Positions 48,879 through 49,802 of a DNA stretch of 64,000 nucleotides are shown one piece after another. Position 1 is the first letter of the stretch. Every line of letters begins with the position of its first letter. The notes under the pieces are model-generated. The model saw nothing but the letters and a program-made list of their open reading frames with translations. It did no database searches and was not told the DNA's origin. The stretch is from sequence record MG770228.1; one strand, written 5' to 3'. Position numbers and translations under genes: made by a program. This stretch comes from Escherichia phage PMBT57.

Positions 48879-49247
48879 ATGTTAGGTGATAACACTAATG
48901 CTCTGTTTGGGGTGTCAGCCAGACCCATTATCATTGTTAATAAACATCATGGTAAGAAAGGTGAATATATTGGGCGTGGTTCTCCTCTGGGTAATCCATT
49001 CGTTATTGGTAAAGATGGAACCAGAGAAGAAGTAATTGCCAAATATAAAGTATGGCTGCAAGAACAGATTGATAAAGGTAATCCAGATGTACTGGATGAA
49101 TTAAATCGTCTTGGTAATAAAGCCATTGATGAAAAAGGATTAGCTTTACAGTGCTTCTGTTATCCAAAACCTTGTCATGGCGAGGTTATTAAAGAGAAGT
49201 TAGTGAAAGCTATGTATAACTATTTTGTGGAAAATCCTAATGGATAA
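48879..49247 (+). CDS. DUF4326-family protein
   Basis: IIIVNKHHG..EYIGRGSPLGNPFVIGKDGTREEVIAKYKVWL...LQCFCYPKPCHGEVI matches my recollection of the DUF4326 pattern (VN.K....YIGR.S.WGNPF..G...R.EVI..Y..WL...C.C.P..CHG.V). Confidence 0.6.
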   Translation: MLGDNTNALFGVSARPIIIVNKHHGKKGEYIGRGSPLGNPFVIGKDGTREEVIAKYKVWLQEQIDKGNPDVLDELNRLGNKAIDEKGLALQCFCYPKPCHGEVIKEKLVKAMYNYFVENPNG

Positions 49248-49425
49248 ACAATGCAAATGTGGTAAAGGCTATGTATCCCAATGGGATGGTAAATGTGGTC
49301 ATTGTAGAACCAAGAAAGAACAACGTGACCATGAATATGCACTTCAGGAAATGATTGTACCTGTTGAGAATTTAGGTATGGCTCCACTTGAGGCTTACAA
49401 ATACATAAGGAGATTATGCAAATGA
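49240..49425 (+). CDS. small zinc-ribbon protein candidate
   Basis: CKCGKG ... CGHC arrangement (two CxxC-like pairs) in a ~61-aa ORF wedged between the DUF4326 and macro-like genes; start uncertain. Confidence 0.4.
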   Translation: MDKQCKCGKGYVSQWDGKCGHCRTKKEQRDHEYALQEMIVPVENLGMAPLEAYKYIRRLCK

Positions 49426-49802
49426 AAGAAGTATTCGTATTTGGTTCTAACCTTGCTGGTGTACATGGTGCAGGTGCTGCAAAGACAGCATATAAGAAAC
49501 ATGGAGCCAGATGGGGTAAAGGGCATGGTCATTACGGTGACAGCTATGCCATTCCCACTAAAGATACCAATATCAAAACGATGACTATTGAAGACATTCG
49601 TACATTTGTAAACGCCTTCATTGTCTATGCTGCTAATCATCCAGAACTTAACTTTAAAGTTACTCGTGTAGGTTGTGGATTAGCTGGTATTGATGATTCT
49701 GTTATGGCCTCTATGTTTGAAAATGCCACTGATAACTGTTCCTTTGACTTAGCATGGAAAAGTTACTTAGGGGATGATTTCAACTACTGGGGAACGTTCT
49801 AA
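49416..49802 (+). CDS. macro-domain-like / Rossmann-like small protein (possible ADP-ribose binding)
   Basis: VFVFGSNLAGVHGAGAAKTAY loosely resembles the macro N-terminal Gly-rich motif and VTRVGCGLAGID the macro I-x-x-G-x-x-G motif; the protein is short (128 aa) for a macro domain, so the call is tentative. Confidence 0.35.
   Translation: MQMKEVFVFGSNLAGVHGAGAAKTAYKKHGARWGKGHGHYGDSYAIPTKDTNIKTMTIEDIRTFVNAFIVYAANHPELNFKVTRVGCGLAGIDDSVMASMFENATDNCSFDLAWKSYLGDDFNYWGTF

Follow-up and report, generated by a model that had tools for sequence, protein, structure and literature searches.

In the present study, we analyzed a block of small genes in a 64,000-nucleotide (nt) stretch of DNA from Escherichia phage PMBT57 (accession MG770228.1; hereafter, the window), in which three adjacent open reading frames (ORFs) correspond, by the RefSeq annotation of phage N4, to N4 gp12, gp13, and gp14. 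The product of gp14 has the predicted fold of a macrodomain, with an Asn and a Lys aligned to the active-site residues of a phage enzyme that removes ADP-ribose (ADPr) from DNA, and gp12 is a DUF4326 protein, a kind found fused to gp14-type macrodomains elsewhere. An earlier note on this DNA had proposed that the three genes form an ADP-ribose-related counter-defence module, and a role of this kind is the best reading of the data, the evidence for it being the fold, the conserved residues, and the fusions. We tentatively suggest, at somewhat less than even chance, that gp14 is a hydrolase which strips a substrate of the ADP-ribose placed on it by a host defence enzyme, with DNA modified by DarT2-type toxins as the likeliest target, and that gp12 is an accessory enzyme acting on ribose phosphate. 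New here are the fold evidence, the mapping of catalytic residues, a Cys-less paralogue of gp12, a triple fusion, and a decayed allele of gp14 in phage G7C.

gp14 matches the NCBIfam family NF049995 (A1S_2505 family phage non-structural protein) with 154 bits (cut-off 45) and an E value of 1.4e-45, and also phrog_2072. Sequence searches against the PDB, by single sequence and by profile, gave no significant match, and the best one, a sub-threshold alignment to human TARG1 (C6orf130), was used as a lead. The structure model shows the three-layer fold of macrodomains. TARG1, likewise a small single macrodomain, is among its top Foldseek hits; yeast Poa1p, an ADP-ribose-1''-phosphate phosphatase macrodomain, is less similar to it in structure than DarG and gives no sign of shared catalytic residues. 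Three motifs stand out: FGSN-x4-HGAGAA, whose HGAGAA loop follows strand 1 (residues 4-12), PTKD, which ends strand 43-49, and GCGLAG, which follows the fifth strand (78-82). Across 55 diverse homologues, N10 never varies, and conservation reaches at least 90% at K47, G84, C85, and G86. In an hhalign comparison of the profile of these 55 members with gp104 of phage PhiKZ (AdfM, anti-DarT factor macro; E 1.7e-4, probability 50%, 102 columns), N10 falls on N23 of gp104 and K47 on K78, with an identical PTKD motif; HGAGAA and GCGLAG align with MGAGLA and GCANGG of AdfM. N23 and K78 are active-site residues of AdfM, equivalent to N22 and K80 of DarG2 (PMC13309987). The weak hidden Markov model (HMM) alignment with TARG1 (E 0.2) is in the same register, PTK lying on ITK (K84 in our numbering) and GCGLAG on GCGLDR. 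In this E 0.2 alignment the Lys of the TARG1 Lys84/Asp125 dyad has its equivalent in K47, whereas the Asp is replaced by Ala88; PhiKZ AdfM has a Gly there. TARG1 further differs in that identity is only about 20% and that it is a eukaryotic protein with a different biology. Judging from these alignments, within the branch of lysine-containing macrodomains gp14 appears to be of the DarG type. The earlier note had also suggested SLOG and NADAR searches on the trio, and these gave no matches: gp14 resembles SLOG, LOG, or DprA neither in fold nor by HMM, and NADAR (PF08719) did not hit gp12, gp13, or gp14, occurring only as a fusion partner in other proteins.

The gp14 family comprises at least 7,998 clusters at 90% identity and 4,235 representatives at 50% identity (E<=1e-3). 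Phage records with gp14-like genes number 401; among them are N4-like phages infecting Pseudomonas, Achromobacter, Erwinia, Rhizobium, and roseobacters, and also jumbo phages and siphophages. Fusions were surveyed in the best 150 of the 50%-identity representatives, many of which extend beyond the domain; in 52 of these long proteins, Pfam searches revealed YAcAr SLOG (4), NADAR (2), WYL_2 (2), DUF4326 (1), and DprA-like SLOG (1) as partners. Protein P0190 is a direct fusion of DUF4326 with a gp14-type macrodomain, and a Lysobacter metagenome-assembled genome (MAG) encodes a 355-amino-acid (aa) triple fusion of DUF4326, macro, and YAcAr domains (L153, 3153-4217). Two further bacterial MAG proteins combine the ADP-ribosylglycohydrolase domain PF03747 with the macrodomain (L135, 2499-3857; L168, 2535-3839). 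Such partners make up the described network of viral ADP-ribose-processing domains, and they tie the gp14 family to ADP-ribose chemistry independently of the fold. The association of DUF4326 with Macro and NADAR domains that the earlier note had given, and likewise that with SLOG domains, is borne out both by the fusions found here and by the literature, where it had already been described computationally for viral ADP-ribose-processing domains (PMC7824862, PMC9503650); the link itself is therefore not new. The Macro/SLOG/NADAR fusions of jumbo phages and giant viruses that include DUF4326 (Iyer et al. 2021, 2022) share the domain repertoire and the predicted ADP-ribose-processing logic with N4. 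N4 differs from them in having separate small genes in the early region of a 70-kb podophage, a probable zinc-ribbon gene between these genes, and an additional Cys-less DUF4326 paralogue, gp9.

Other arrangements of the gp14-type domain were also seen. In bacterial MAG proteins it is fused to DUF1810 and Mur-ligase domains (L173, 3444-4703; L164, 2145-3854), and in P0123, P0124, and L174 (3003-3845) two copies stand in tandem, the Gly loops being altered in both copies of P0123. In two N4-like viral contigs of about 75 kb (L026, 1718-2692; L029, 2-868), DUF4326 forms the N-terminal part of a longer ORF located 0.7-1.2 kb upstream of the gp14-like gene, and the C-terminal part of the L026 protein is weakly DprA/SLOG-like. 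NAD or nucleotide contexts outside the N4-like phages were found in two cases. In Acidovorax phage ACP17, NMN adenylyltransferase/Nudix and nicotinamide phosphoribosyltransferase (Nampt) genes are located 1.3 kb downstream of the gp14-like gene (L011, 2959-3354 and 4674-6348). In Agrobacterium phage 7-7-1, a DUF2493 (SLOG) gene and a nucleoside deoxyribosyltransferase gene are no more than 1.7 kb from the gp14-like gene (L013, 1191-3336).

The earlier assignment of gp12 to DUF4326 is well founded, the match to PF14216 (E 6.6e-23, 81.6 bits, profile positions 4-82 of 82) being well above the cut-off of 25 bits. gp12 carries the active-type motif LQCFCYPKPCHG (C92, C94, C99, H100); the GRGSPLGNP and CxCxPKxCHG motifs are present in gp12 and its active-type homologues and absent from gp9 and from gp11 of Achromobacter phage Axy10. 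Searches of the PDB by single sequence and by profile gave nothing significant. The gp12 model has a Rossmannoid fold like that of RapZ-C and PTP/DUSP, with the C-terminal domain of RapZ as the nearest structure and Cys-phosphatases next. In this model, the LxCxCxPKxCHG motif spans strand 88-92, which C92 ends, a loop with C94, C99, and H100, and helix 100-118, so that the predicted site occupies the position of the active-site loop of Cys-phosphatases. The arginine of the CX5R signature of these phosphatases is not present in gp12, and the Cys3His cluster may be a structural metal site instead of serving catalysis. The RapZ C-terminal domain and DUF488 have 11-14% identity to gp12, and RapZ-C, a sugar-phosphate-binding regulatory domain, lacks CxCxPKxCHG. 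A clade of RapZ-C, DUF488, and DUF4326 was reportedly defined in a 2023 paper on rhodanese phosphatases.

The link between gp12 and gp14 is seen in the P0190 and L153 fusions, in a Burkholderiaceae MAG (L099) where a DUF4326 gene precedes the macro gene by 20 nt, and in 15 of the 29 N4-like loci. These loci belong to a set of 80 IMG/VR viral loci encoding a gp14-like protein (29 N4-like, 51 other). The commonest same-strand neighbours in the set are the RNA polymerase (RNAP) genes, RNAP1 in 32 loci and RNAP2 in 25, which reflects N4-like synteny. DUF4326 is the next commonest, found by BLAST clustering in 23 loci, and 28 of its 30 ORFs precede the macro gene; the YpsA/YAcAr SLOG family and gp13 are each found in 6. 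The count of 15 comes from stricter profile searches for DUF4326 on the same strand and at most 4 kb upstream; of these loci, 9 had the active motif and 10 the Cys-less type, the latter sometimes without an active copy. Since gp12-like sequences occur in only 756 of 50,697 phage records, the enrichment of DUF4326 beside gp14 is real, and much of it is shared ancestry.

gp13 is not part of this core. It matches phrog_13804 (E 4.4e-35) and no Pfam family. As the earlier note had said of the protein of about 61 aa, it has a CxC...CxxC pattern: none of C5, C7, C19, and C22 varies among 8 distinct homologues (46-97% identity), nor does the motif CGKGY.S.WD.KC..CRT, whereas the C-terminal half is variable. 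Judged by its sequence, gp13 is a probable zinc ribbon with putative metal binding. A tblastn search with gp13 gave hits in 112 phage records. The match spans the whole protein in N4-like phages of enterobacteria and in some Klebsiella phages (45-57% identity). It is limited to residues 1 to 25-32, which contain the cysteine motif, in K1E/SP6-like and other podophages, where no macro or DUF4326 context is present. The 6 viral loci with gp13 are confined to Enquatrovirinae-type contigs, no gp13-like segment is found in the DUF4326-macro fusions including P0190, and phage G7C has gp14 directly after gp12. In Erwinia phage Ea9-2 the order is DUF4326, an unrelated acidic 65-aa ORF in the place of gp13, and the macro gene. 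gp13 is thus a lineage-restricted insert between gp12 and gp14, and the idea of the trio as a unit was not upheld: the strict trio of active DUF4326, gp13, and macro gene occurs in 3 of the 80 viral loci. Of the two outcomes that the earlier note had named as damaging to its proposal, an unrelated fold for the macro-like protein was not seen, whereas the lack of co-conservation of the trio in related phages was.

One possible explanation of these data, and the one we tentatively prefer, is as follows. gp14 would be made early in infection as an active macrodomain of the lysine-containing TARG1/DarG branch, would bind the ADP-ribose adduct through its two glycine-rich loops, HGAGAA and GCGLAG, and would cut the bond at ribose C1'' using Asn10 and Lys47. 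Its substrate would be a macromolecule carrying ADP-ribose from a defence ADP-ribosyltransferase of the host, the leading candidate being phage DNA modified at thymidine by DarT2-type toxins, on which DarG2 and the AdfM proteins have been shown to act. What puts this DNA ahead of other substrates is the fold of gp14, which is DarG/TARG1-like, together with its Asn/Lys pair and the precedent of AdfM. The phage macrodomains PhiKZ gp104 and T4 Tk.4 (AdfM) neutralise DarTG2, and removal of DarT2-made ADP-ribose from DNA by PhiKZ gp104 has been validated experimentally. NADAR enzymes acting against DarT1 are also known (PMC11825919). AdfB of phage ICP1 was considered for comparison and set aside, as it is a DarT binder and is not described as a macrodomain. 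gp12 would be a facultative accessory enzyme of the rhodanese/Cys-phosphatase fold (RapZ-C/DUF488/DUF4326 clade), whose Cys-rich strand-loop-helix site might remove or transfer a ribose phosphate on the same substrate or on a breakdown product, and gp13 would be a lineage-specific zinc-ribbon protein outside the core system.

Several observations weigh against this explanation. gp14 has no Pfam hit and no match to the Macro clan at E<=1, so that what the earlier note had called a macro-like protein is supported by the macrodomain fold of the predicted structure but not by a Pfam Macro HMM. gp14 also gave no hit at E<=1 with the PADLOC DarG model (PDLC02990), which PhiKZ gp104 and T4 Tk.4 match with E values of 4.4e-39 and 1.3e-9, both of them also hitting Pfam Macro PF01661, and the hhalign comparison of the gp14 profile with Tk.4 was non-significant. 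The protein is shorter as well (126 aa against 155-162 aa). gp14 is therefore not to be filed as a member of the DarG/AdfM family, but it may still work in a similar way. In 80 bacterial and archaeal loci encoding gp14-like proteins, no neighbour family occurred in more than 3 loci and no recurrent DarT-like neighbour was seen, DarT not having been searched for with a dedicated HMM. Furthermore, the reversal of DarT2 modification requires no phosphatase, and a DNA substrate leaves gp12 unexplained. In the literature, we found no work on N4 gp12-14 specifically and no experiment on DUF4326 or the gp14 family.

The separability of the two genes weighs on the same side. Among the viral loci that are not N4-like, DUF4326 was near the gp14-like gene in 1 of 51. 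In three N4-like loci (L016, L020, and L021) gp14, gp13, and gp11 are kept and DUF4326 is present only in the Cys-less form. G7C-type phages (Gamaleyavirus) show the opposite: gp12 is 88% identical to that of the window, gp14 only 46%, and the RNAP genes 65-69%. The G7C gp14 (L009, 3001-3351) has lost HGAGAA (now HTNAAA), the Lys of PTK (now PVR, in PVRD), and GCGLAG, and from its sequence looks like a decayed or repurposed macrodomain. The macro gene stands alone in Pseudomonas phage MAG4, roseophage DSS3phi2, jumbo phage Deifobo, and phages ACP17, RcZahn, 7-7-1, and K4. Since gp14 is kept without an active gp12, and an intact gp12 is kept with a degenerate gp14, the pair is facultative, and an obligate partnership is not supported. 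Moreover, the nucleotide similarity between N4-type and Gamaleyavirus/Klebsiella N4-like phages (81-83%; positions 48556-49344 of the window) covers gp11, gp12, and the 5' part of gp13 and ends inside gp13, a pattern suggesting that a recombination boundary separates the DUF4326 gene from the macro gene.

An alternative, possible but on balance rather unlikely, is that gp14 and gp12, which in other viruses have SLOG and NADAR partners, dismantle soluble immune signals or toxins derived from ADP-ribose, such as the cyclic-ADPR isomers of Thoeris, His-ADPR, ADPr-1''-phosphate, ADPr>p, or products of TIR or SIR2. The macrodomain would cut a 1'' or 2'' linkage, and DUF4326 would remove the ribose phosphate. 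This is the published prediction for viral Macro/SLOG/NADAR/DUF4326 sets (PMC9503650, PMC7824862), and it accounts better than a DNA substrate for the phosphatase-like and SLOG partners of the macrodomain. The apparent DUF4326-SLOG fusions about 1 kb upstream of the macro gene in L026 and L029, the NAD-salvage neighbours in ACP17, the SLOG and nucleoside deoxyribosyltransferase neighbours in 7-7-1, and the cellular loci, in which no DarT partner was seen by a survey that lacked a dedicated DarT HMM, also fit. However, both the conserved Lys and the nearest matches in structure are indicative of the TARG1/DarG branch, for which all substrates characterised are macromolecules, although sequence cannot tell the class of substrate. 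In addition, the N4 gene block has no recognisable SLOG or NADAR gene, and the literature found shows no phage macrodomain degrading a defence signal. The same partners could be taken further: DUF4326, the gp14-type macrodomain, and, in other genomes, the YAcAr SLOG might form a dedicated multi-enzyme pathway dismantling an undescribed phosphorylated ADP-ribose adduct or signal of bacterial defence, a thought that we consider decidedly unlikely. If it were true, DUF4326 would be the first enzyme of Cys-phosphatase fold acting on ADP-ribose derivatives, gp9 would be a substrate-binding decoy or regulator, and N4 would offer a genetically tractable entry to a new branch of NAD-based immunity and counter-immunity.

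It is unlikely, though less so than such a pathway, that there is no module at all, and that independent early genes are together through the inherited gene order of the Enquatrovirinae, with gp14 acting alone, gp12 having an unrelated nucleic-acid or nucleotide role, and gp13 being an unrelated small zinc protein. The rarity of the strict trio, the solitary gp14-like genes of Pseudomonas Litunavirus, roseophages, jumbo phages, and siphophages, the larger number of phage records with DUF4326 than with gp14-like genes (756 against 401) and its frequent place beside ribonucleotide reductase genes, and the intact gp12 next to a degenerate gp14 in G7C all agree with this, and the similarity ending inside gp13 would be mosaic exchange. 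Against this stand the independent DUF4326-macro fusions in unrelated contigs (P0190, L153), the tight adjacency in L099, the fact that in viral contigs DUF4326 is more common beside gp14-like genes than any other neighbour except the RNAP genes, and the same fusions reported for jumbo phages and giant viruses in published surveys. Very improbable in our view is a housekeeping function at RNA ends, in which the pair would process by-products of RNA repair or of RNA 2'-phosphate removal (ADPr>p, ADPr-1''P), or ADP-ribosylated or NAD-capped RNA ends arising from transcription by three polymerases: in the early block we detected neither KptA/Tpt1 nor a 2H phosphoesterase nor an RNA ligase, and conserved genome order explains the synteny with RNAP genes. 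We give even less credence to gp14 as a non-catalytic ADP-ribose binder, a sponge or sensor that sequesters an ADPr-type signal as anti-Thoeris sponges do. Some macrodomains are readers only, gp14 has Ala88 at the position of TARG1 Asp125, and tandem duplications of the domain exist (P0123, P0124, L174); but the catalytic Asn and Lys of DarG2 and AdfM are conserved across the gp14 family, and the Asp is also lacking in DarG-type enzymes, PhiKZ AdfM having a Gly in its place.

As for the surroundings of these genes (Table 1), region 47800-50000 of the window has 99.2% nucleotide identity to Escherichia phages vB_Eco_SPSP and vB_Eco_AL25 and 98.1% to phage N4, and the window shares 98-99% nucleotide identity with Enquatrovirus phages. 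The earlier description of three overlapping small genes was correct in that the ORFs are on one strand and overlap, by 8 nt in the case of gp12 and gp13 (ATGGATAA), but the third protein more likely has 126 aa than the 128 first given. The start at 49422 is preferred because it forms an ATGA overlap with gp13, has AAGGAG 9 nt upstream, and agrees with homologues, which begin with MKE; the start of gp14 in the N4 RefSeq annotation is its equivalent. Next after gp14 come gp15 and gp16, which encode both subunits of RNA polymerase II of N4.

Table 1. Genes and hairpins in the gp12-gp14 region of the window
Feature	Position	Strand	Description
gp12	48879..49247	+	122 aa; DUF4326 protein
gp13	49240..49425	+	61 aa; CxC-x11-CxxC, probable zinc ribbon
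gp14	49422..49802	+	126 aa; divergent stand-alone macrodomain (predicted)
gp14, alternative start	49416	+	128 aa
gp8	47867-48082		Pfam PF25713 'Bacteriophage N4 DNA replication inhibitor', E 1.1e-18
gp9	48058..48393	+	Cys-less DUF4326 paralogue, presumably inactive
gp11	48556..48876	+	106 aa; directly upstream of gp12
Hairpin	49820..49836	+	7-bp stem, 3-nt TCC loop, then TTGG; between gp14 and gp15 (RNAP1)
Hairpin	45831-45847		Near-identical, same architecture; just upstream of gp2
Terminator-like hairpin	46353-46374		Conventional
Terminator-like hairpin	47796-47821		Conventional
Terminator-like hairpin	51954-51979		Conventional

The two hairpins with a TCC loop were located by scanning for perfect stems that close a 3-nt loop. 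The early promoters of N4 are hairpins of extruded single-stranded DNA, and gp1, gp2, gp15, and gp16 are N4 early genes (PMC13434306). The hairpin after gp14 (AAGCTGC-TCC-GCAGCTT ttgg) has a perfect stem; because N4 early promoters are of this kind, it is plausibly a candidate promoter for the virion RNAP bounding the gene block. The promoter that the earlier note had placed directly downstream of the trio is thus matched by a fitting hairpin, and its function as a promoter would follow by analogy. From their position and strand, between gp1/gp2 and gp15/gp16, we infer that gp12-14 are expressed early. The minus-strand ORFs of the region gave no PHROG match, and an Rfam scan of it found no family. 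gp8, the known N4 inhibitor of host DNA replication, is the sole gene of the block with a curated function. Pfam found no ADP-ribosyltransferase among the other early proteins, and a PADLOC scan of gp9, gp11, gp12, gp13, and gp14 gave no hits. For the 'N4-like' ADP-ribosyltransferase family of PMC9503650, no connection with phage N4 could be established.

gp9 is a second DUF4326 homologue (Pfam E 2.8e-4, below the cut-off; phrog_464 E 1.8e-20), in whose alignment the GRGS motif and every cysteine of CxCxPKxCHG are lost; to judge by these losses, it is a conserved pseudo-enzyme and presumably inactive. Genes of the gp9 type are found in the window and at 3171-3503 of L008, and the type is conserved in Achromobacter phages; in Achromobacter phage Axy10, such a gene abuts the macro gene upstream, and an active copy lies 2 kb upstream. 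gp11 matches phrog_7827 (E 8.9e-56) and is found in 7 of the 29 N4-like viral loci as well as in G7C and Erwinia phage Ea9-2. It is co-conserved immediately 5' of the DUF4326 gene in Enquatrovirus, Gamaleyavirus, and Erwinia phages (window 48556-48876; L007, 3046-3360; L028, 2464-2775), and its candidacy as a module member is unproven. The gp11 homologues of Erwinia phages have a TGAAGVE segment that recalls the GGAxGAD nucleotide loop of SLOG domains; the comparison with YAcAr/SLOG was non-significant (hhalign E 0.13 over 24 columns), and gp11 was rejected as a degenerate domain of this type.

Database labels of these proteins vary. Depositors have called the third gene 'macrodomain protein' (AlfredRasser/Bas69) or 'ADP-ribosylglycohydrolase' (AL25), and the labels 'ADP-ribosyltransferase' and 'ADP-ribosylglycohydrolase' given to gp14 homologues in GenBank are not supported by domain analysis. 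The PF03747 fusions probably explain the second of these wrong labels on phage homologues. Homologues of gp12 are labelled 'ribonucleotide reductase NrdA-like', 'DNA repair protein', or 'antirepressor protein', again with no domain support, and these labels stem from PHROG families built around multidomain proteins. For two of the four labels 'ADP-ribosylglycohydrolase', 'ADP-ribosyltransferase', 'NrdA-like ribonucleotide reductase', and 'DNA repair protein', none of which has a domain match behind it, the annotation appears to have been transferred from multidomain proteins.

N4 is a classical model phage, most of whose early genes have no assigned function. The placement of gp14 among macrodomains with DarG/AdfM-like residues makes concrete experiments possible, and gp14 defines a very large family for which there is no Pfam model. 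Furthermore, gp12 and gp14 of N4 are a minimal two-gene system in which a first activity of DUF4326 may be sought.

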